In this document: one piece after another, positions 644 through 45,717 of the stretch
How the letters are laid out: the number at the start of each line of letters is the position of its first letter
Position numbering within the stretch: position 1 is the stretch's first letter
Sequence record: MN445185.1
DNA from: Escherichia phage vB_EcoM_EC001
Direction: 5' to 3' (one strand)
DNA length: 64,000 nt
Made by a program: the position numbers and the translations under genes
The notes under the pieces: generated by a model
What the model was told of the DNA's origin: nothing
Databases searched by the model: none
What the model saw: only the letters and a program-made list of their open reading frames with translations

Positions 644-2748
644 TGGCGGGTCGTTCTGTACACGTGCGTGATTTGCGTATGCTTAACTCTGATCAGGTGT
701 GGAAACTACGCGGGCGTTATTACGTGACATTCGACGATGGTAAGTCGTTGGAAATGTCTAGTCGCCACATCAAACTCAGCTGGCCGTATTGGGGTGTGTC
801 GCGTCTGTATCCGCAGGTGCCCACTCCATCGACCATGGCGTATCGTCCAGGTCAGGTAGCAACAGATGACCTGCATCTGGACTTTATGTCGGAAGCAGCG
901 GTACTGGCCCGTAAAGCAGGTGTCGACCTTGCTGAAACGCGTTATATCCTGAGTCAACATGTCTACGCCGATGCGTTCAACATGACAGTGAAGAACCTGC
1001 TGTCCTATTGCACGACAATCGACTTTGATACGATGATGGAGATCTACGACCATCCGAACTTCGAACTCATCCGTCAGTGGGAAGTGCAATATCCTACTGG
1101 CTACGATGAAGATGGTCGGGATATGGTTGAAGAAGCGTACAAGCTTATCGAGAAAATCTTCAAAGACCCTGCGCTACGGTATAACCCGGTCGTGATGTCG
1201 GTACTGGATGGTACTGTGAAGATGAACCAGGTACTGCAAGCCTTCGTGCGTGGTAAAACGTCAGAAATTGACTCACGTGTATACACCAATCAGGTGTGGG
1301 AAGGCTTCTTTACCGGAATGCATTCGGTTATTTCGCGTTTGAAAGAATCTGGTGCAACTTCACGTTCCCACTTGTACAACACTGACAAGATTGCCGAAGC
1401 AGAATACGCCTCACGTAAACTGCAGCTGGCAGCAAACGTACTGATGTATTTCACGTACGACGACTGCGGTACAACTCACGCACACCGCTACACGTTTAAG
1501 GATACGCAGCTGGATGAGCGTGCCTATAAAGCGATGGTGGGGATGCGTTATCGTTTAGAAGGTGATAATGGTCCGTGGTTGAGATTTGAGAAAGGTGGAT
1601 ACGCAGACCTGGTTGGCAAACCGCTGGTCTTCCGTAGTGCCATGACCTGTAAAGAGATGGCGAATCAGTCCATCTGTGCGACCTGTATGGGGGATTTGAT
1701 TTATAACCTCTCTGAAGGTACGTCACCAGGTCATCTGGCATCCACGTCCATCTCGGAAAAGGGTACACAGGGAATTCTCTCTACCAAGCACCTTGACTTC
1801 TTGCGTTATCTGCTCAACCTGGTACTCACCCCACGTATGCGTGAGTATATGACCGAATACAAACATAACTCTCTGAAAGGGTTGTGCTTGCTGCCAAAAC
1901 CACAGCGTGGGAATTGGTCAGAATACGAGTTGGTTGTTACCGACAAAGTTTATTCGGAGCTGAGCCAGATTGCGTATCATGAAGATCTCGATGCAATTGA
2001 TGAAACGGCATTACCAGAAATCACCGACTTAACTTTCCAACGTCGTTTAGAAGATGGGCAGATAATCGCTGCGGATTCTATCGATGTGCGAATGGGTGTT
2101 TGTGGGAACTTCTCTAAACCGTTCCTGCACTACTTCTTGAAACAACGAGCGAACATTCGTATCGAGAAGAAGACGGTTCAGATTCCTTTGAAAGGATGGA
2201 ACCCGAAACACCCGGTCCTGGTCTACACCAACCGTTCTGAATCGATGGCGGAGTTCGTAGCCGGCTTAGAAACCAAGCTCCGTTCGATTGCTGCCGATAA
2301 GAACGAAGACATTGTGGAAATCATCAACACAGCCTCGACTGTGAAGCTGAACAAGAAACAAGGTCGTGTGAAACCGGTGACGTTGGTTGAAATGGGTGGT
2401 GCTACAGAGAAACAGTGTACTTATGCGTTGATGGACACGTTTAAGTATATCCAGCGTAAGCTGAGTGGTATACCGATGACGCACATTGCGATTATGTTGG
2501 CGATATCTCGTGTAGAGTCGCCAACCAATCCGTTCCCGGCAGTAGGATTTGACAGTGAGGATTCTACTAATGCCACCGGGAAACGGTTTGTCGATCACAA
2601 CACGCTCATTAGTTTGCGCTCGGCAATTCCGATGTTGTTGTTTGAAGGACAGCAGGGGAATATCGATCGCGTTGGTTTTTATACCGAGTACAAAATCCCG
2701 GCATCGTTGTACGATGACCTAGGAGCCGCTGTGGTAATTGAGTTGTAA
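643..2748 (+). CDS. hypothetical protein (701 aa)
   Basis: Long ORF, GGAGGA SD at 631-636, translationally coupled to upstream ORF, followed by intrinsic terminator; no motif recognised. Confidence 0.8.
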   Translation: MAGRSVHVRDLRMLNSDQVWKLRGRYYVTFDDGKSLEMSSRHIKLSWPYWGVSRLYPQVPTPSTMAYRPGQVATDDLHLDFMSEAAVLARKAGVDLAETRYILSQHVYADAFNMTVKNLLSYCTTIDFDTMMEIYDHPNFELIRQWEVQYPTGYDEDGRDMVEEAYKLIEKIFKDPALRYNPVVMSVLDGTVKMNQVLQAFVRGKTSEIDSRVYTNQVWEGFFTGMHSVISRLKESGATSRSHLYNTDKIAEAEYASRKLQLAANVLMYFTYDDCGTTHAHRYTFKDTQLDERAYKAMVGMRYRLEGDNGPWLRFEKGGYADLVGKPLVFRSAMTCKEMANQSICATCMGDLIYNLSEGTSPGHLASTSISEKGTQGILSTKHLDFLRYLLNLVLTPRMREYMTEYKHNSLKGLCLLPKPQRGNWSEYELVVTDKVYSELSQIAYHEDLDAIDETALPEITDLTFQRRLEDGQIIAADSIDVRMGVCGNFSKPFLHYFLKQRANIRIEKKTVQIPLKGWNPKHPVLVYTNRSESMAEFVAGLETKLRSIAADKNEDIVEIINTASTVKLNKKQGRVKPVTLVEMGGATEKQCTYALMDTFKYIQRKLSGIPMTHIAIMLAISRVESPTNPFPAVGFDSEDSTNATGKRFVDHNTLISLRSAIPMLLFEGQQGNIDRVGFYTEYKIPASLYDDLGAAVVIEL

Positions 2749-2751
2749 ACC

Positions 2752-2777
2752 GAGGGGCCTTGCGCCCCTCTTTTTTT
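2752..2777 (+). terminator. rho-independent terminator
   Basis: GC stem GAGGGGC/GCCCCTC followed by T7 run, directly after stop 2746-2748. Confidence 0.8.
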
Positions 2778-2794
2778 GTGCGAAGAGGGGCAGC

Positions 2795-5539
2795 ATGGTA
2801 GAAATTCAAATGACTTACACGAGTATGGGGGTACGGGTTGAAGTCCCTATCCGCCAGGCTGAAAGGGCCATACTCGCGTGGGCCGAAGAGAATATGCACG
2901 CCCCAAAGATGGGCAAGCAACATGGACGAATAACTACGGAACGCGGTGACGCGTACTACGCCCACATTCCGTCTTTAAGGACGTTCATTTTCCATAAAGT
3001 GTTCGCTGAGAAGATTAAACATATCCTCCAACGAGCAGCAATTGAATATGCTTTTCAGTACAAGCTTACAGAGCACCATCCTGAGCGAGGAACACCTTAC
3101 TGCTGTACATTTGATAACTACGGCTTCTCGATGGTAGAAAGCGATCCGGAGTCGCGTTTCTACTATCAGAACGAGGTTGTGGATGCAGCGTCCGATCCAA
3201 ACCGACCACAGACAATCTTTGCCATTCAGACAGGGAGAGGAAAATGCTGTGCTCATGGTACGCGTGTGCGTGTACCGGGTGGTTGGAAGAACATTGAGGA
3301 TATACAGCTAGGTGATTACGTTACGGGGCGTGACGGAAAACCAGCAATGGTCTCTGGAGTGTTCCCACAGGGTGTGGTTGACCTGTATCAGGTGACGTTT
3401 TGGGATGGTAGGAGTGTTGACGTATGTGGCGAGCACTTGTGGCAAAGCTACTACGTTAATACCACCGAGAATCGTCGCTGGGGTGTACGTGATACCCTAG
3501 AGATGAAACGTTTAATTTCGATGCCTAATCCACGGGTATACATCCCATTACCAGAACCAGAGGAAATGCCAGCTAAGGATTTTGTCATTCATCCGTATTT
3601 ACTCGGTATCCTCTTGGGTGATGGCTCCCTATCGATGCCTGGTGTTTTATACACCAAAGGCGATGTGGAGATTCGTGACCGTGTTGCTGAGGTCATGCCC
3701 GCTGGACATGCAATCCATGATTCATCGTACAGCGATGGGATAACGAAGTGCATCTCTTGTCCCGGCGGTGTTAACCTTGTCCGCAGAGAGCTTGAGCGGT
3801 TAGGGTTAATTGGCTGCAGGTCTTGGGAAAAGTTCATACCTGGAGATTACTTCGAAACGTCCATCGAACAACGGTGGGAGTTGTTGCGTGGCTTGATGGA
3901 TACTGACGGTACTGTGGATAAGGATGGTGGTACGCCTTCTTTCTGTTCCACCAGTAAAGAATTGGCTTTAGGTGTTCAGGAACTTGTGCGGTCTTTAGGA
4001 GGGATTGCAACACTACGCGAGAAACGTCCGTTCTTCACACACAACGGCGAACGTCGTGAAGGTCGTTTGGCTTATAACGTCTCCATCCGCCACAAAACAC
4101 CATCGAAACTGTTCCACCTTCCAAGGAAGAAAGAACTGTGTCGTGATAACGGACAATACACCGATATACTGAAACTCCGTGTTAAGTCTATCGAACCCAT
4201 TGGTCGTGATCTTGCCACGTGTATTCGTGTCGAGAACGACGATGCGTTGTTTGTGGTGGACAAGTGGATCGTTACGCACAACACCAAGACCTGTATGAAG
4301 TCGATGGTTAAACGGGGAACCCGTACCGCATTGATTCACCGTCCGTCGTACGTTCCCAAATGGCTGTTTGACGTCTGTGATGATGAAACAGGACTTCGTA
4401 TACTTCGTGACGAGGTGTTAGTTTGTACAGGCGTACAGGCGATTTACGACGCGCTGGAGATGGGTAAGTCGGGAGAGCTAGATAGTCGTGGTATTAAGGT
4501 AATAATCCTCCCCACGGTCTCTCTACAGCGTTTCCTGAAGGAGTACATTAACACTGCTGCGACTAACCCTGTGGACCTGGATACGTTTTATGATGTTCTG
4601 GGTGTGGGTCTGGTGGCGATGGATGAGGTGCACGAGCATTTTCACCTCGTTTACATGGCTGGTATAATGTTGAACCCTCCGGCATCGATAGAGATGTCTG
4701 CAACCCTTAAGCCGGGTAGCAGTAAAGCCTTTATCGCGGAGCGGTATTTAGAACGTTTCCCAATGGAGTACCGAATCAGTATTCCAATCATTCCGGTGGT
4801 TGACGTGAAGGCGTTGTACTATCGACTGGATGATAAGAAGTTTGCGTGGTGGGCGTCGAAGATGACGCCGTATAACCACAAGCTCTTCGAAGGGAAGCTG
4901 ATTAAAGAGAACTTGCATTTAGAATACGCGAACATGATCTGGGATGTGGTTGAGAAATCGTTCCTTAAACGGTATCAACCTGGCCAAAAATGTTTGATAC
5001 TCTTTGCTACGGTAGCGATGTGTGAGTTCTTTACCGAGTATGTGAAAGATAAGTTATCGCGTGACCCTGTATTCCATCCGTTGATGGTGGCGAAATATAA
5101 TGCAGGCGATTCGTATGACGACTTTATCCAAGCAGACTTCTCTATCTCCACACCGGGGAAAGCGGGGACTGCGGTCGATAAACCTGGGTTGGTACACATG
5201 TACATTTCAACCCCGGTAGAAGACCAGCAACTGAACGAACAGATGGCCGGTCGTCCACGTAAGATTCTCCACAACGAATGGGGTGAAATAGACCCAACGG
5301 TGTGGTTATTCCATGCGTATAACGTACCGAAGCATTGCAATTACCTGAATGCCCGCCAGAAATCACTCAAGGATGTCGTATTGTCGTTCCGTATCGCGAC
5401 ATCCCCCTACGTTGTAAGGAAATCACATGCTCACTCCGCCGCGTCCAGCAGAGCCGCTGCCACCCTACATCGGAATGACTTTAGCAAGTTTTCTCGAAAA
5501 CGTTCTAAAGGCGTATCCCGGCGTAGAAGACGTCGCTAA
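2795..5539 (+). CDS. SF2 DExH-box helicase interrupted by an intein (914 codons, about 568 aa after splicing)
   Basis: Motif I AIQTGRGK|T restored after intein removal, motif II VAMDEVHE, motif III MSATL, motif VI QMAGRPRK; ATG 2795 with GAGGGG SD; the track start 2738 is a TTG inside the upstream gene. Confidence 0.75.
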   Translation: MVEIQMTYTSMGVRVEVPIRQAERAILAWAEENMHAPKMGKQHGRITTERGDAYYAHIPSLRTFIFHKVFAEKIKHILQRAAIEYAFQYKLTEHHPERGTPYCCTFDNYGFSMVESDPESRFYYQNEVVDAASDPNRPQTIFAIQTGRGKCCAHGTRVRVPGGWKNIEDIQLGDYVTGRDGKPAMVSGVFPQGVVDLYQVTFWDGRSVDVCGEHLWQSYYVNTTENRRWGVRDTLEMKRLISMPNPRVYIPLPEPEEMPAKDFVIHPYLLGILLGDGSLSMPGVLYTKGDVEIRDRVAEVMPAGHAIHDSSYSDGITKCISCPGGVNLVRRELERLGLIGCRSWEKFIPGDYFETSIEQRWELLRGLMDTDGTVDKDGGTPSFCSTSKELALGVQELVRSLGGIATLREKRPFFTHNGERREGRLAYNVSIRHKTPSKLFHLPRKKELCRDNGQYTDILKLRVKSIEPIGRDLATCIRVENDDALFVVDKWIVTHNTKTCMKSMVKRGTRTALIHRPSYVPKWLFDVCDDETGLRILRDEVLVCTGVQAIYDALEMGKSGELDSRGIKVIILPTVSLQRFLKEYINTAATNPVDLDTFYDVLGVGLVAMDEVHEHFHLVYMAGIMLNPPASIEMSATLKPGSSKAFIAERYLERFPMEYRISIPIIPVVDVKALYYRLDDKKFAWWASKMTPYNHKLFEGKLIKENLHLEYANMIWDVVEKSFLKRYQPGQKCLILFATVAMCEFFTEYVKDKLSRDPVFHPLMVAKYNAGDSYDDFIQADFSISTPGKAGTAVDKPGLVHMYISTPVEDQQLNEQMAGRPRKILHNEWGEIDPTVWLFHAYNVPKHCNYLNARQKSLKDVVLSFRIATSPYVVRKSHAHSAASSRAAATLHRNDFSKFSRKRSKGVSRRRRRR
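3245..4282 (+). mobile_element. intein with LAGLIDADG homing-endonuclease domain (346 aa)
   Basis: In-frame insert begins with Cys right after GRGK, ends VTHN followed by Thr; two LAGLIDADG-type motifs LLGILLGDGSL and LLRGLMDTDGTV. Confidence 0.75.
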
Positions 5540-11103: not shown

Positions 11104-11604
11104 ATGACTAAGAAAGACACTACTACCCTTGACCCGCGTACAGAAGGCGTGGTCCGTGATAGCGCTTCTTACAGCAACGACGACCAATATCGTGTTAAAC
11201 TGATCACCACGATGCTCGATGAAGCAGGTAACAATGCCGGTCCACGCAAAGCATCTGGTACCCAGGCTGAGAAAGATGCGTATAATAAGCTGCATCACTC
11301 TTTCCGTGAGCTGTTTAAACTGCGCGGTCAGGCCTTCCTGGACGGTTTCTACGCCTTCGTAGAAGCGGCTAATAAGCATCGTAACGGTATTTTCTACGCA
11401 CCGGCTGCTAATAACCGTATCAGTGAGAACTTCCCGAATCGCGACGAGCGTGAAGTCTTCGTTATCTTTATTAACATGCTGATTCGTTACGCACGTTGCG
11501 CCGACAAAGGCCGTTTCCGTGATACCAACGATGTTGACCGTCTGGCTCGTCGCTTGAACGACCCGGACCTGCGTTCGCTGGTTATGCACGCCTTTGGCGG
11601 TTAA
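11104..11604 (+). CDS. hypothetical protein (166 aa)
   Basis: ATG 11104 just after upstream stop (the track start 11029 would overlap it); followed by terminator. Confidence 0.65.
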   Translation: MTKKDTTTLDPRTEGVVRDSASYSNDDQYRVKLITTMLDEAGNNAGPRKASGTQAEKDAYNKLHHSFRELFKLRGQAFLDGFYAFVEAANKHRNGIFYAPAANNRISENFPNRDEREVFVIFINMLIRYARCADKGRFRDTNDVDRLARRLNDPDLRSLVMHAFGG

Positions 11605-11613
11605 ATAAAAGTA

Positions 11614-11650
11614 CCTCTCTACCCTAGGGTAGAGAGGCCTTTCTTTTTTT
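11614..11650. terminator. bidirectional rho-independent terminator between convergent genes
   Basis: CCTCTCTACCC/GGGTAGAGAGG hairpin flanked by A-run upstream and T-run downstream. Confidence 0.75.
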
Positions 11651-11653
11651 GTT

Positions 11654-13438
11654 TTAGAACCCGCAGATGTACTCCATAGGCTCTGTCACTACTTCCCCTT
11701 GCTTACGTAAGAACGTAGACAGGACAGTGTCTTTGTCCGGTAAGCAGAAGAAGTCTGTCGCTATTTCCATGGCATTAACTCGCCCAGCAGTTAAGTTGAC
11801 GCCCGTGCGACGTCGAATCTCTTCACTAACCCCATTGATGGACAGTAGTTCGATGAGTGTGGTCTCACGAGACTGGTTCATCATGTTTGTGGCCGAAGGG
11901 TAGGCCTGGGTTAAGTCCGCATCCGCAGTTTGTCCACGGAACGCAGAGTAATATTCGTCAATCTCCTCCAGAATGTTATTCAGACCGTTCTCAGCATTCA
12001 TACATGCTGTCAGGGTAACAATCCAACCGTCTGTACCGATAACCTCTTCATCGTAATCGTTACGCATTGCAGACCCTACGGAACCGATGACGTATCCTTT
12101 GTCATACAGATAATAGGTAAAGGCCACACAGATACGTTTTGGTAACGACGGGAAGATATCGTACATCGAGAAACCTGCCAGAATGGATATTGCTGAAGAC
12201 AAGTCGTTCGTCTTCTTATCCAACAACACGATTAACAAGTTATCCATCATGTTGTATACGGCATATTCGGCAGGGTAGTCCCGTTGTGCTTTTATGTGCC
12301 ATTGCAGGTTATCTTCATACGGCAGTCCAGGAATGTCGAGTTTGTGTAAACCGAGTTCGGTGTACAGTATGGCAGATAACTTGTACGAAGGACGTTGCCC
12401 TTCGTGGACACGCAACGAACGGAATAACACCATGGCATCCACACAGTAGAAAGACGCAGTACAGTAGAGTACGTGCCACTGTTGAGACGGTGCTTTGGTG
12501 AGTGACTTGGATTCCGTCTTTTTGTTCGCCTGGTCTTCTTTAAACCACAGACGACGGTATTTCTCCGGAACATCCGGATGGTTAAAGACGCCCAGTGGAT
12601 CGATACCTTCTTTCTGCAAGGTTTCCAACATGCGTGAAATATCGAACTGGTGGTTCCATGCGACCAGCAAATCAGGAAGACGTGGATGAATTTCTTCGAA
12701 CATCCTGACGATGCACTGCCCTGCCGTAGCGCAGGTATAGGTGAATATTTTATAACCGCTGATAATGTCTTTGGTCTTTGTCACCTTTTCGCCAGTCTTT
12801 TTGTCTTTCTCATCGAATTCGATTTTGCTTAAGAGTTCCTGCGCTTTTTTGAGAATGACTTCTTCCGCGTTTTTACCGATGCGGTCCATGTAGTTCTTAG
12901 CACCAAAGAAATGGATTTCGTCGTCTAAGATAAACGACACGATCCACGGTTCCTTCGTGCCGTCCATTTCGTTGGTCTCCACGTCGTATACGCAAAGACG
13001 GTTAGGGCTGATGTTGTTCGGCCAGCGCTTTAAGTATTTCTGTTTAATCCAGCTGGTAATCGGTAAGTCGGCCCAATAAACGTACGGGCTAGTACAGACT
13101 CGGCGCAGGTTCTTTTTCGGGTCAGGGAAACGTGCACCTAAACCCATCTGCAACGTCTTCGCCATCTGCGCATCAGTAGTCCAGAGTTCTTGACATTTTC
13201 CTTTTTCTTCGAACTCTTTTTTCTCCTGGTGGTTACGATATTCTTCACGGGTAACGTACACCGGACGCTTTAAATTCTCACGCATTACCAAGCGCGGGAT
13301 AAGCCTGCCATCCTTAGTATGGATGACCTCTTTGATGAGGACAAAGTCATTTTCTTTTTCTTCGTCCGTCGCATAAGCGACGTGCTTGCACTCTTTAGCG
13401 ATGACATCCTCGGGTGCGTAATAGGTATTGATTTCCAT
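11654..13438 (-). CDS. family-B DNA polymerase N-terminal fragment: 3'-5' exonuclease domain plus polymerase motif A (594 aa)
   Basis: Exo I YDVETNEMDG, Exo II VAWNHQFDISRML, Exo III YAVYNMMDNL, motif A-like DADLTQAYPS; no motif C (YGDTDS) before the stop. Confidence 0.7.
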   Translation of the reverse strand: MEINTYYAPEDVIAKECKHVAYATDEEKENDFVLIKEVIHTKDGRLIPRLVMRENLKRPVYVTREEYRNHQEKKEFEEKGKCQELWTTDAQMAKTLQMGLGARFPDPKKNLRRVCTSPYVYWADLPITSWIKQKYLKRWPNNISPNRLCVYDVETNEMDGTKEPWIVSFILDDEIHFFGAKNYMDRIGKNAEEVILKKAQELLSKIEFDEKDKKTGEKVTKTKDIISGYKIFTYTCATAGQCIVRMFEEIHPRLPDLLVAWNHQFDISRMLETLQKEGIDPLGVFNHPDVPEKYRRLWFKEDQANKKTESKSLTKAPSQQWHVLYCTASFYCVDAMVLFRSLRVHEGQRPSYKLSAILYTELGLHKLDIPGLPYEDNLQWHIKAQRDYPAEYAVYNMMDNLLIVLLDKKTNDLSSAISILAGFSMYDIFPSLPKRICVAFTYYLYDKGYVIGSVGSAMRNDYDEEVIGTDGWIVTLTACMNAENGLNNILEEIDEYYSAFRGQTADADLTQAYPSATNMMNQSRETTLIELLSINGVSEEIRRRTGVNLTAGRVNAMEIATDFFCLPDKDTVLSTFLRKQGEVVTEPMEYICGF

Positions 13439-13461
13439 GGTCTACTCTCAAATATGGTGTC

Positions 13462-13470
13462 TGCTATACT
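13462..13470 (+). promoter_or_regulatory. possible host sigma70 extended -10 element (TGcTATACT)
   Basis: TGnTATACT about 40 nt upstream of ATG 13509 in a divergent intergenic region; no clear -35. Confidence 0.3.
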
Positions 13471-13508
13471 GATTTGTGGGTAACGTATTTTCTAAAAGGA
13501 ACGTCTAA

Positions 13509-14861
13509 ATGGGACACTGGCAAAAGCACATAACCTCGTTGGCCGACGCGAAAGCCGTGGCCTCGGAATCCATCGGATTCCAAGATAAAAAGAAACTCGC
13601 CTCTTTGGCGGAAGTGGTACGTAAGTTCCGTGATGCGGGCGACTTCTCGCCAGCGGGTTATCAGAGTTCTGGTATTGCTGCCTGGGTCTTTGACAACAAC
13701 GGTATTACAGTCCTGCCTCGTAACGGGTCCGACTTAGGTGTGGCGGACGTTGTGTTTGCGGGTGTGGAGCCGCCGAAGCTCGACGCGAACAACCCAATCA
13801 TCGCCGACCTGCAACGCAAGATGGTGCAGGGTAACATCGACCTGGATGTCTACAGTAAGTTCTTAAAAGAGAACGAGCTGAACGGCGAGTTCGACGATAA
13901 AAATGCGAAGCTTTCAGGCGAACTCAGCAAGGTGCCGTCCCCACTTTGGCTGACCCCGAAACTACTGACCGGTATCGAGTTAACGGATTTAGAAGTCGCG
14001 GCGATAATTCTGCATGAAGTCGGCCACGTCTATTACTATTTCCGTACCTTGATGCGTACGGTGGTAACGAACCTGATTGCGGATGCTGCAGCGAACCGCA
14101 TGATGCAAACCGAAGACCCGACAGTGCGTTTAAAAGTCGTAAAAGACGTTGAACGTATGCTGAACACCAAAGTGAATCAGCCGGAAACTATCTGCAAAGA
14201 GATGTCTAAAGAGAACATCTACATGCATCTGGTGACAGACATTCTGCTTGAGCGTCCGTTTGTTACCGGTTCGGAAGGGTTCGCTAACCGTACCTGGGAA
14301 CGTGCTGCGGATGACTTCGCAGCTCGCTTTGGTGCAGCCCCGTACCTGGCGTCAGCCTTGTACAAAATCGAAACGTCCCAATTCTATCTCTGCCGGAACG
14401 CGTCGTACATGAACTACGGTGTGCATCTGATGCTGGAAATGCTTAACGTTTCGCTGCTGATTGTGGCTTCGACTAATCCAGTTGGCCTGTTCTTCACGAC
14501 TATCTCGGTGGCGTTCGGTCTGATTGTGAACGACCCACGCAACACCATCTACGATCCGCCGCAGGAACGTTTTGAGACGATGCGTCGTAACTTAGTGGAG
14601 GAGCTGAACACCTTAAAAGGCAGCACCACGAAAGAAGCGAACGAACACCGTAAACGTATTCTGCAGGGCATTGCGTCTATCGACGAATTACTGAAAACCG
14701 TGAAAGACAAAGACAACGTCTTTAGCTTCATCATGAAAACGCTGACCCCTGGCGGTCGCCGTGAGCGTGCTGGGGTGGATTATCAGCGTACGATGGAGCG
14801 CTATCTTTCTAATGACCTGCGTGTGGCTTCTGCGAAGCTTAGTCAGGCGACTTCTTCCTAA
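13509..14861 (+). CDS. putative zinc metallopeptidase-like protein (HExxH motif) (450 aa)
   Basis: AAIILHEVGHVYYYF contains HEVGH in a hydrophobic context; AAAGGA SD. Confidence 0.65.
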   Translation: MGHWQKHITSLADAKAVASESIGFQDKKKLASLAEVVRKFRDAGDFSPAGYQSSGIAAWVFDNNGITVLPRNGSDLGVADVVFAGVEPPKLDANNPIIADLQRKMVQGNIDLDVYSKFLKENELNGEFDDKNAKLSGELSKVPSPLWLTPKLLTGIELTDLEVAAIILHEVGHVYYYFRTLMRTVVTNLIADAAANRMMQTEDPTVRLKVVKDVERMLNTKVNQPETICKEMSKENIYMHLVTDILLERPFVTGSEGFANRTWERAADDFAARFGAAPYLASALYKIETSQFYLCRNASYMNYGVHLMLEMLNVSLLIVASTNPVGLFFTTISVAFGLIVNDPRNTIYDPPQERFETMRRNLVEELNTLKGSTTKEANEHRKRILQGIASIDELLKTVKDKDNVFSFIMKTLTPGGRRERAGVDYQRTMERYLSNDLRVASAKLSQATSS

Positions 14862-38175: not shown

Positions 38176-39738
38176 TTAGAACAAATCATCACCCATTCCA
38201 CCGGTGAAGAAGTTGATAGACGACGCTGTTACGGTTTCTTCTTTATCACAATCCCAAGGCAGGATGCCAACATCCTGGAAAGGTATCACTGTGTAGTGAT
38301 AAGATTCTTTAGTATCGATAATGGTGCGGTGCTTACCGCGTTGAACTTCTAAGAAGCTATGGCCGTTGACCACACGCTTGTTAAAATACATTTCACCATC
38401 GGCCTCGTTATCAAGGCTCGAACAACTATCGTAAAGACCACGACCAGGTAAGTTCTTACAGAAACCTACCGGGTCTAACGCTTTTAAGCGCTTACCTTCT
38501 GGGGAAATCTGGTGTGGGGCAATTAAGAACCCACGGTTGCGTACCACTTGGATGTTACGAGCAATACGATAAATTTCTTTGATATCACTCCCGGCAATAC
38601 CGTTGCCGTGTCCTGCTTTGCTGATTGTGCCTAAGTAGTCTGCGCGAATGCCAACAACATGATAACCGCGACGACGTAAGTCGAGAATAAGGTCGTTGAT
38701 GTAGTGCACTTTAAAATCGGAGTTGGTGTGCTTTTGGAAAACGTAGTCCCAACCGTTTGCGCGAATCTTACCACAGAGGTAATCAGACATTGCTGTTGTG
38801 TGTGCTAACTTCTCTTCAGCGGTTGCATCCTGTGCAATGGTCATCTGTGGAACTTGTCCTTCAAAATGACCGTACAGTGCTTGATAGCCGTAAGCTAAGT
38901 TAACGTCGAGTTCGTTTTCTAAACTCAAGTCAAGAATAATTGGTTGCAGTGTGCCCTTCACATCCGCCATTACTTTCTCAGGCGTGTTGAAGATAGGAAT
39001 CGACAAGCTCAGTAAGAGACTGAACAAAGACTTACAGTTAAAAGGTAACGCCGGCATTAGCCACAGTTCTTCGGTAATCCCTTTGTTACAACCGAGCATT
39101 TGGTTAATGGCTTTCCAGCCCGTCTGCAAACCATTACCTGCTGCTTTCTTGTTAATCGAGTCGAACACTTTAACAAACGGAGCCCGATTATCTGTAACCA
39201 GCTCACCGACCAGCGATGGAATCTTATTATGAGAGCGTTCACCGAACGTAGATAGCGCCTCTTTGAGTTCGAGCACTGCGGTGTTCAGATCAACACGTGT
39301 CTCAGTTCCATTCAATGCTCCGAACGCGCGACCCATTTTTGTTTTGAGTTCGACGCTCTGTAAACATTGACGTAATTGGAAATAATATTGAGACAGTTGT
39401 CGATTAAGATGCTCGGTACGTTTGTCTTCTTCCTCGGGCAAATCGTCTTCGAGGAATTTGGTAATCGTATCGTATAGAGGACGTACTTGAGTGGTGGCCA
39501 GCTTCAAGCGCTTCATAACGCTCGCGTGGTCGTATTCCATGCCGCCGTCTATGATAGATGTGATAATGTCCTTGATCTCGATGAGTGCAAAGCGCTCTTC
39601 GCCATCTTCCGCATATTCCGGAAGCTTGATCTGCATCAGAACTTTTCTTATGACATCATGATCCTTGCTAGGGTCCGTCAGCATAGATTCTGTATACAGT
39701 GCGGCTAAGGCGGTTATCAACATCATTTTACTATTCAT
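38176..39738 (-). CDS. hypothetical protein (520 aa)
   Basis: Long ORF; AAGGA SD on minus strand; hydrophobic N-terminus. Confidence 0.75.
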   Translation of the reverse strand: MNSKMMLITALAALYTESMLTDPSKDHDVIRKVLMQIKLPEYAEDGEERFALIEIKDIITSIIDGGMEYDHASVMKRLKLATTQVRPLYDTITKFLEDDLPEEEDKRTEHLNRQLSQYYFQLRQCLQSVELKTKMGRAFGALNGTETRVDLNTAVLELKEALSTFGERSHNKIPSLVGELVTDNRAPFVKVFDSINKKAAGNGLQTGWKAINQMLGCNKGITEELWLMPALPFNCKSLFSLLLSLSIPIFNTPEKVMADVKGTLQPIILDLSLENELDVNLAYGYQALYGHFEGQVPQMTIAQDATAEEKLAHTTAMSDYLCGKIRANGWDYVFQKHTNSDFKVHYINDLILDLRRRGYHVVGIRADYLGTISKAGHGNGIAGSDIKEIYRIARNIQVVRNRGFLIAPHQISPEGKRLKALDPVGFCKNLPGRGLYDSCSSLDNEADGEMYFNKRVVNGHSFLEVQRGKHRTIIDTKESYHYTVIPFQDVGILPWDCDKEETVTASSINFFTGGMGDDLF

Positions 39739-43938: not shown

Positions 43939-45717
43939 GTGTTTAAAGATGCGATTAGGAAGATTAAAGAGGCAGGCGAAATAGTGCCTTTTAATCGTGC
44001 AATTGCAGAAGGAGTTGGGTACACACAAGCTAAAGACGGGATACATGATCGTGTGGCAACCATTCTACGTCGTGAGTTGACGTATGATGAAATCGATAAC
44101 CCGAAATTACCAGAAGGGTTAACGGTATTAGGTTGTCGCCAAATGTCGCCGTTTGAAGCTTTTATCTTTAAGTTATCGAAGTCGGATAACAATTCACGAA
44201 ATAATCGTGGCCGGTCAATTATTAACATCTCATCCACTGATACGTATATGGTAATGGCCTCGTTCCGAGTTCCAGGCGATCCTCGCCCGGTGCAACGACC
44301 AATGAGCTTACCATTTATTCGTCGTGGCGGCTTAATGAACTACTACGGTACAACGTACCACGTAGCACCTGTAATCCACCAACCTGGTATTTGTCGTGAG
44401 CACGGTGGTATCTTTATTAACTTTGACTTCACCCGCAAGGTGTCTATCAAGTTCTGTAAGAAACCAACGAAGATTCTGGTGAATGGTCGCCCTGAGCAGC
44501 TGTTCTTGCCAGGTACATCGAATCTGTTTGTCTCAACCGGACAGATTGGACACGACACCGATGAGAAGCCGTTGATGTATTGGCTCTTCGGGCGCTACGG
44601 CTTTAAACAAGCTGTGAAGCGTTATGCGGGTGTTGATGTGGCGATTTGGCCAGCGATTAAAGTACGTGATGTGGACTTAACGAAGTATGTGGTGATTCAG
44701 TCCGGTGAGCCACAACTCGCGAAGACCATCCAGTACGTACTGTTGGTTAAACGTGAAGATATGCCTAACACCGATGCAGGGCGTTGGGATCAGAATGAAC
44801 ATCTGTTGCTGGTAGCGACTGCCGCATTCTTCAAAGCAGCGCACTACTACGCAGGTAAACAGAACAGTAAGAACGGTCGTGCACCAACACTGCCGGGGCT
44901 GTTTACACAGATTAACGAAATGGCAATGGACGAAGATATTGCGAACCTCAATTCTGCAGCCTCCTGGCGCGAAGTGTTGGGTCGTAGTATTCGCGGACTG
45001 AAGCCTTCGGATATCGAACTGAGTCGCAGTATGGACAGCCACTTCCAGGAATGTGAACGCTATGTCAACAGCACCTTCCGTGGTGAGCTGATGGCAAACG
45101 ATCCGTCCATCCCTGATGATTTGGATATGTTTGATTTCCTCTGGTACACCACGCAGCTGATGGTGCGTACTCGTCTTACCAAACAAGATGATATTCCGTC
45201 TATGTACGGAAAACGTCTCACGGTAACCGATTACTTACTGTTGGGCCAACGTGGCTTTACCACAACGATCTCGAAAATACGTTGGAAGCTGGGGCAGTTG
45301 GAACATCGGACTCCAGAGACAGCGGCGAAGTCTATTCGAGACGCACTGAACAAACAGATCGTGCTCAATCTGGTGATGCGCACCATTACGAGCAACGGCG
45401 GTATCAGTTTCTTCAATGCCTCTACAGAATCAATGGTATTGGCAGTGTCTACGCACGCCATCGGTCAAACCGAAACCGATGCTAAGCGTTCGAAGAAAGG
45501 AGGCAAGACCGTTAACTTGAACGACCGTACTAAGCACGCATCTGCGTCGCATCTGGAATGTGGTAACGTCTACTATATTCCTAAGTCGGCACCGTTTAAG
45601 GCAAACATCCTCAACCCGTACATGAAGACCAACCCAAGTTTGGTAATGATGCGGAACCCTAAACTGGACCCGTACATCAGACCGACCGAAGAAGACATTG
45701 CTAAAATCGGCCGCTAA
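43939..45717 (+). CDS. hypothetical protein (592 aa)
   Basis: GTG start with GAGGGAGG SD 5 nt upstream. Confidence 0.75.
   Translation: MFKDAIRKIKEAGEIVPFNRAIAEGVGYTQAKDGIHDRVATILRRELTYDEIDNPKLPEGLTVLGCRQMSPFEAFIFKLSKSDNNSRNNRGRSIINISSTDTYMVMASFRVPGDPRPVQRPMSLPFIRRGGLMNYYGTTYHVAPVIHQPGICREHGGIFINFDFTRKVSIKFCKKPTKILVNGRPEQLFLPGTSNLFVSTGQIGHDTDEKPLMYWLFGRYGFKQAVKRYAGVDVAIWPAIKVRDVDLTKYVVIQSGEPQLAKTIQYVLLVKREDMPNTDAGRWDQNEHLLLVATAAFFKAAHYYAGKQNSKNGRAPTLPGLFTQINEMAMDEDIANLNSAASWREVLGRSIRGLKPSDIELSRSMDSHFQECERYVNSTFRGELMANDPSIPDDLDMFDFLWYTTQLMVRTRLTKQDDIPSMYGKRLTVTDYLLLGQRGFTTTISKIRWKLGQLEHRTPETAAKSIRDALNKQIVLNLVMRTITSNGGISFFNASTESMVLAVSTHAIGQTETDAKRSKKGGKTVNLNDRTKHASASHLECGNVYYIPKSAPFKANILNPYMKTNPSLVMMRNPKLDPYIRPTEEDIAKIGR

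Follow-up and report, generated by a model that had tools for sequence, protein, structure and literature searches.

The sequence analysed here is a stretch of 64,000 nucleotides (64 kb; hereafter the window) from Escherichia phage vB_EcoM_EC001 (record MN445185.1). It contains a minus-strand gene for a 594-residue protein that resembles a family B DNA polymerase (PolB) and stops well before such an enzyme is complete (Table 1). Is this protein half of a split polymerase and, if so, where is the other half encoded and how is the active site shared between the two? A first-pass annotation of the sequence had described a stand-alone N-terminal half and left two explanations, a polymerase divided in two with its catalytic half at another locus or a repurposed exonuclease. 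The first of these is upheld by our analysis. The open reading frame (ORF) very probably encodes DNAP-N, one subunit of a heterodimeric replicative PolB whose remainder, DNAP-C, is encoded about 27 kb away, the two chains assembling 1:1 around a composite active site. The split arrangement itself is real, but it is not new: in 2017 Thomas et al. (PMC5694885) named gp18 and gp44 of the Salmonella phage SPN3US a split-subunit DNA polymerase, and the window protein is the orthologue of gp44.

The N-terminal subunit ends shortly after motif A

The protein shares with gp43 of phages RB69 and T4 the N-terminal domain and exonuclease fold, the three exonuclease motifs Exo I to III and polymerase motif A, in the same order. 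They agree with the PolB signatures DxE (Exo I), Nx(2-3)[FY]D (Exo II), Yx(3)D (Exo III) and DxxSLYPS (motif A). These four motifs had already been picked out in the first-pass annotation, and they are confirmed by an alignment of 37 homologs with identities down to 22%. D152, E154, D266, Y395, D399, D506, D508, Y513 and P514 are invariant in all 37 sequences while N262 of Exo II is kept in 36 (residue numbers are those of the full-length protein with Met1 counted; the alignment and the structural model lack Met1 and their numbering is therefore one lower). Invariant or near-invariant residues also occur throughout the 79 residues that separate motif A from the C-terminal end. From this sequence conservation DNAP-N is predicted to be an active exonuclease.

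The profile built from the DNAP-N family matches RB69 gp43 in the PDB (E=3e-10) in three colinear stretches. It pairs Exo I with D114/E116 of RB69, Exo II with N217/D222, Exo III with Y323/D327 and motif A with D411 (D508-LTQA-Y513-P514-S versus D411-LTSL-YPS). In this last stretch the profile segment DlDvtsaYPsaeavlNiskeT is aligned to RB69 residues 404-431 (SFDLTSLYPSIIRQVNISPET), and the alignment reaches into the NxSxET signature that RB69 shares after motif A. The protein also matches PHROG 3011, labelled 'DNA polymerase', over nearly its whole length (E=4e-251, residues 4-586 against positions 1-574 of 576).

The AlphaFold2 model of DNAP-N alone has a mean pLDDT (predicted local distance difference test) of 83.1, with confidently folded N-terminal and exonuclease domains. 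A Foldseek search of the PDB with this model ranks RB69 gp43 chains first (E=3.8e-12, probability 1.00, about 470 aligned columns), followed by Pol epsilon and archaeal PolB with E of about 1e-11. The pLDDT falls below 50 in segments 465-478, 504-540 and 542-555, around and after motif A. Low confidence in this region (residues ~465-555) is expected for the isolated chain because the segment would need its partner.

Motifs B (KxxxNSxYG) and C (YGDTDS) are absent both from the ORF and from the whole window, where a six-frame scan for [YFVLI][GAVS]DTDS also gave no match. The protein thus stops before motifs B and C, as had been proposed. These motifs are carried by a separate partner protein and the ORF therefore encodes a subunit rather than a complete PolB. 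Both adjoining genes lie on the plus strand, and a tblastn search of the window with DNAP-C yields no partner (best E=0.58), in agreement with the initial statement that no C-terminal half is adjacent.

In relatives, the catalytic partner is encoded on the opposite strand, about 27 kb away

In SPN3US, DNAP-C corresponds to gp18 (YP_009153312.1, 759 residues), whose gene (11544-13823, plus strand) is separated from that of gp44 by 27.4 kb, on the opposite strand, and lies about 18 kb before the equivalent of the window start. Together DNAP-N and DNAP-C amount to 1353 residues. gp18 matches the Pfam family PF20286 'Divergent Family B DNA polymerase' (E=5e-284) as well as PHROG 2927. It carries KTLNNGMSG as motif B and VVSDTDS as motif C, in which K157, N160, N161, S164, G165 and the run S418-D419-T420-D421-S422 are invariant across 27 homologs. 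In the fingers it can be aligned with Pol zeta around motif B, and the best structural match of its model in the PDB is RB69 gp43 (E=4e-5). The PDB searches returned no close (phiKZ) structure for either half.

The first-pass annotation had suggested looking through the genome for an ORF with motifs B and C. None exists in the 64-kb window, but gp18 provides one in SPN3US and the same pairing recurs in IMG/VR: all 14 contigs with a DNAP-N gene (identities down to 68%) also carry DNAP-C, 27-30 kb away and on the opposite strand. Fusions of the two halves were found neither among 94 DNAP-N homologs nor among the best 120 DNAP-C homologs (679-807 residues for the full-length ones; two partial ones have 420 and 589). 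A full-length PolB elsewhere in the genome would have spoken for another explanation; no other PolB is annotated in SPN3US.

The chain breaks off after motif A, ahead of the fingers

In the proposed enzyme, the PolB N-terminal domain would come from DNAP-N, together with a DEDDy 3'-5' proofreading exonuclease that is intact and the first element of the palm, which bears the catalytic D508. From DNAP-C would come the thumb, the motif B fingers and the hairpin of the palm that holds the Asp-Thr-Asp of motif C. By analogy with phiKZ, the two chains are expected to pair non-covalently in a 1:1 ratio. RB69 and T4 gp43 are single chains of 898-903 residues, whereas in the polymerase studied here one chain ends after motif A and the fingers belong to the other. 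The active site is therefore predicted to be built from two chains, motif A being supplied by one and motif C by the other, and neither subunit would polymerise alone. The conserved tail of DNAP-N may supply what is missing from the palm and contact DNAP-C; the interface probably consists of this tail and of residues 1 to ~115 of DNAP-C. From the Asp of motif A to the Lys of motif B the split pair counts about 243 residues over both proteins (87 + 156), compared with 149 in RB69 between D411 and the motif B Lys, which we take to be K560.

Several points weigh against this reading. DNAP-C lies outside the 64-kb window, and its presence in the genome of vB_EcoM_EC001 itself is deduced from relatives that are 98-99% identical. 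Pfam has no match to the N half (E up to 1), and a single-sequence phmmer search of the PDB retrieves only a chance match to a granzyme, so that the family profile is required to reach RB69 gp43. Taken alone, the motif A stretch of that profile match is weak (i-Evalue 55), though it is colinear with the exonuclease motifs. Finally, Iyer et al. (PMC7824862) place the whole RRM (RNA recognition motif) palm in the C protein, which conflicts with a motif A on DNAP-N, and treat the exonuclease as an independent protein with its gene at another locus. An N-terminal 'RDIDV' is present in DNAP-C and is not invariant in the 27 homologs; for this reason the motif A Asp of the N protein appears to be the real one. 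In our alignment the first palm element seems to go with the exonuclease protein. Previous comparative studies had shown the palm as lying wholly within the C protein; the composite active site is worth stating if the phiKZ structure does not already show it.

Alternative explanations

The N-terminal half of a PolB could have been repurposed as a stand-alone 3'-5' exonuclease acting independently of any polymerase, for instance in repair, recombination or host-DNA degradation. Such an enzyme would retain all the exonuclease catalytic residues, as DNAP-N does, its N-terminal and exonuclease domains are modelled with confidence in isolation, and its gene is transcribed separately, on the other strand and far from the polymerase half. 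However, D506, D508, Y513, P514 and the 79-residue tail are invariant or highly conserved and have no role in an exonuclease, while most of the region from residue ~465 to ~555 is predicted with low confidence in the isolated chain, as would be the case for a partner-dependent segment. Moreover, the N half is accompanied by the C half in each of the 14 contigs, and the phiKZ orthologues associate stably in a 1:1 complex (PMC13648687). This second suggestion of the first-pass annotation is consequently not favoured and we regard it as very unlikely. It is also unlikely, though a little easier to entertain, that DNAP-N belongs to the polymerase and acts in addition as a free exonuclease in proofreading or DNA processing. 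DNAP-N and DNAP-C are transcribed from distant, oppositely oriented units and for this reason their schedules might differ; the two could then accumulate at different times, with their assembly serving as a regulatory step during infection.

If a split intein or trans-splicing ligated the two translated halves, a single conventional PolB chain would result. The genome does contain an intein, in a helicase gene (see below), and the PolB of another jumbo phage, MIJ3, is interrupted by one (PMC6892783). Against this, no Hint or intein domain is found in either half (Pfam, E up to 1 for the N half), the residues that follow motif A resemble a PolB (NxSxET) and not an intein, and the phiKZ enzyme is described as a two-subunit complex (PMC13648687). 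Ligation is thus extremely improbable. Practically no weight can be given to the idea that the gene is an artefact or a pseudogene, that is, what is left of a full-length PolB cut short by a frameshift, by gene decay or by a mistake in the assembly. Fragmented and frameshifted matches to the gene do occur in several SPFM phage records, but they reflect the sequence quality of those records and not that of the window. The length of the protein is kept across 94 homologs and in 309 phage records, all 22 nucleotide differences from SPN3US are synonymous, and past the clean stop codon of the ORF come a bidirectional terminator and then a convergent gene that is itself conserved. Because these last two elements come next, the frameshift fusion to a downstream polymerase domain that had been envisaged at the outset is impossible. 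The heterodimer of DNAP-N and DNAP-C accounts for the locus far better than these alternatives.

Comparison with known split polymerases

Recognition of the split polymerase goes back to Cornelissen et al. 2012, who saw it in Pseudomonas phage OBP, as cited in PMC5105663 and PMC5694885. The nearest described case is that of SPN3US: DNAP-N is identical to gp44 at all 593 residues compared, and the window differs in this gene by the 22 synonymous nucleotides and elsewhere, for example, by the helicase intein. phiKZ possesses an orthologous two-subunit PolB, the window protein being 33.9% identical to the PHIKZ082 region over 96% of the query. A preprint by Basu et al. (bioRxiv, Oct 2026; PMC13648687) reports that DNAP-N and DNAP-C of phiKZ form a stable 1:1 complex, solved by cryo-electron microscopy at 2.1 Å and homologous to other B-family polymerases. 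The same text describes a third subunit, Rhc, with an RNase H domain and a sliding-clamp-like domain, that stimulates the phiKZ polymerase. Primer extension, complex formation and the interaction with Rhc are shown there for the phiKZ orthologues only.

The replication repertoire is likewise similar to that of phiKZ, with a divergent DnaB in the window and a candidate Rhc in SPN3US. The latter is encoded outside the window (SPN3US 181783-183297) as a 504-residue 'ribonuclease' with an RNase H domain (PF00075) at residues 89-190 and about 310 further C-terminal residues; its domain architecture makes it a candidate Rhc. The N-half genes of phiKZ and PhiPA3 match in two and three pieces respectively (AF399011.1, 78008-79888; NC_028999.1, 74326-76694), with some 1.7 kb of coding sequence spread over about 2.4 kb in PhiPA3, whereas the window gene is uninterrupted. 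These separate pieces suggest an insertion (intron, intein or homing element) that is absent from the window.

Other family B polymerases are also made as two polypeptides that must associate. Those of Methanothermobacter are PolB1 and PolB2, and the break point of the archaeal split PolB differs in lying after motif B. A split gp43 occurs in some T4-related Aeromonas phages. The PolB of MIJ3, interrupted by an intein/HNH element (PMC6892783), is a further case. In these other split enzymes the pieces are adjacent, nearly so, or parted by a mobile element. In contrast, the halves of the window type lie about 27 kb apart on opposite strands and no mobile element is present at the junction. Our analysis fixes the break point of this type between motif A and the fingers, in proteins whose sequence identity with RB69 gp43 is 13-16%.

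As a discovery these observations count for little; their practical use is in annotation. In many deposited relatives the gene is labelled 'hypothetical protein', 'T4-like DNA polymerase' or 'DNA polymerase II', and Pfam models the C half (PF20286) while none of its models matches the N half.

Relatives and genomic context

Judged from its sequence, the genome of the window is a Seoulvirus, an SPN3US-like jumbo phage related to phiKZ. The DNAP-N gene shows 98.5-99.1% nucleotide identity with those of Seoulvirus Salmonella phages (SPN3US, SPFM, SEGD1, SPLA and others), at 98.8-99.1% with Seoulvirus genomes in which it carries the annotation DNA polymerase, and its neighbours, strand and length match those of SPN3US gp44. 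Within its first 25 kb, the window is no more than 98.3% identical to any deposited phage (best JN03). A tblastn search with DNAP-N matches 309 phage records, the PHIKZ082 region of phiKZ included. The 94 homologs measure 430-640 residues, mostly 552-640; those of 430-539 residues are largely fragments or frameshifted SPFM records. In these SPFM records (LR535907.1, LR535905.1; proteins P0039-P0053, P0186 and P0213) the matches come in about 30 pieces, with odd, partly matching proteins for both polymerase halves, which looks like the result of indel-rich assemblies rather than biology.

Genes for RNA polymerase beta-like subunits flank the DNAP-N ORF. Further along the window lies a divergent DnaB-like replicative helicase (PF20307 divDNAB, E=1e-124); in phiKZ-like phages the split polymerase has the divergent DnaB as its partner helicase. 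The combination of multisubunit RNA polymerases and a divergent DnaB is typical of phiKZ-related jumbo phages and fits the membership of DNAP-N in the phiKZ-like group. Another protein of the window, of 592 residues, bears only the label 'polymerase' (PHROG 2943) and has no Pfam match. It was considered as the missing half or as Rhc and rejected, since it is a homolog of PHIKZ123 (gp123), a subunit of the phiKZ non-virion RNA polymerase (PDB 7ogp_E, E=3e-20).

The DNAP-N gene and its downstream neighbour converge, with stop codons at 11654 and 11604. Between them, 16 nt beyond the DNAP-N stop, lies a hairpin with a perfect stem that could serve as an intrinsic terminator in both directions; the phage would transcribe its genes with its own RNA polymerases. 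On the other side, no sigma-70-like site and no promoter were identified in the intergenic region shared with the divergent gene; the lack of a sigma-70-like site is expected because the phage uses its own RNA polymerases. The divergent gene encodes a 450-residue protein labelled as a virion structural protein. It contains an HEVGH motif, and its similarity to peptidase M48 is below threshold (E=0.0034, 17.7 bits versus a cut-off of 20.3).

Table 1. Position of DNAP-N, its motifs and the other window features discussed in the text
Feature	Window position	Strand	Residues	Remarks
Helicase with intein	2738-5539	plus	933 aa	superfamily 2 (SF2) 'DNA helicase'
Hairpin	11613-11638	both		intrinsic-terminator-like; 11-bp stem, T-runs on both strands
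DNAP-N gene	11654-13438	minus	594 aa	ATG start; N-terminal subunit, SPN3US gp44 orthologue; parts in order: PolB N-terminal domain, DEDDy 3'-5' exonuclease, first palm element with motif A, conserved 79-aa tail
C-terminal tail after motif A	11657-11893	minus	79 aa	conserved
Polymerase motif A	11894-11923	minus	506-515	DADLTQAYPS; D508 equivalent to catalytic RB69 D411
Exo III	12236-12265	minus	392-401	YAVYNMMDNL; key residues Y395, D399
Exo II	12626-12658	minus	261-271	WNHQFDISRML; key residues N262, D266
Exo I	12959-12988	minus	151-160	YDVETNEMDG; metal ligands D152, E154
Divergent intergenic region	13439-13508			70 bp, 5' of the DNAP-N gene; common to the plus-strand gene starting at 13509
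Divergent neighbour	13509-14861	plus	450 aa	labelled virion structural protein
Divergent DnaB-like helicase	38176-39738	minus		PF20307
PHIKZ123 homolog	43939-45717	plus	592 aa	PHROG 2943

An intein in the SF2 helicase gene

The SF2 helicase gene near the start of the window encodes 933 residues, compared with 568 in SPN3US. The additional ~345 residues include a Hint domain (residues 170-221) and a LAGLIDADG homing endonuclease domain (residues 380-430, E=4e-10) and therefore correspond to an intein. It is missing in SPN3US and in a 239,546-bp metagenome scaffold that carries the N half of the polymerase. The intein is present in SPLA3, where the helicase gene is mis-annotated as 'terminase large subunit'.

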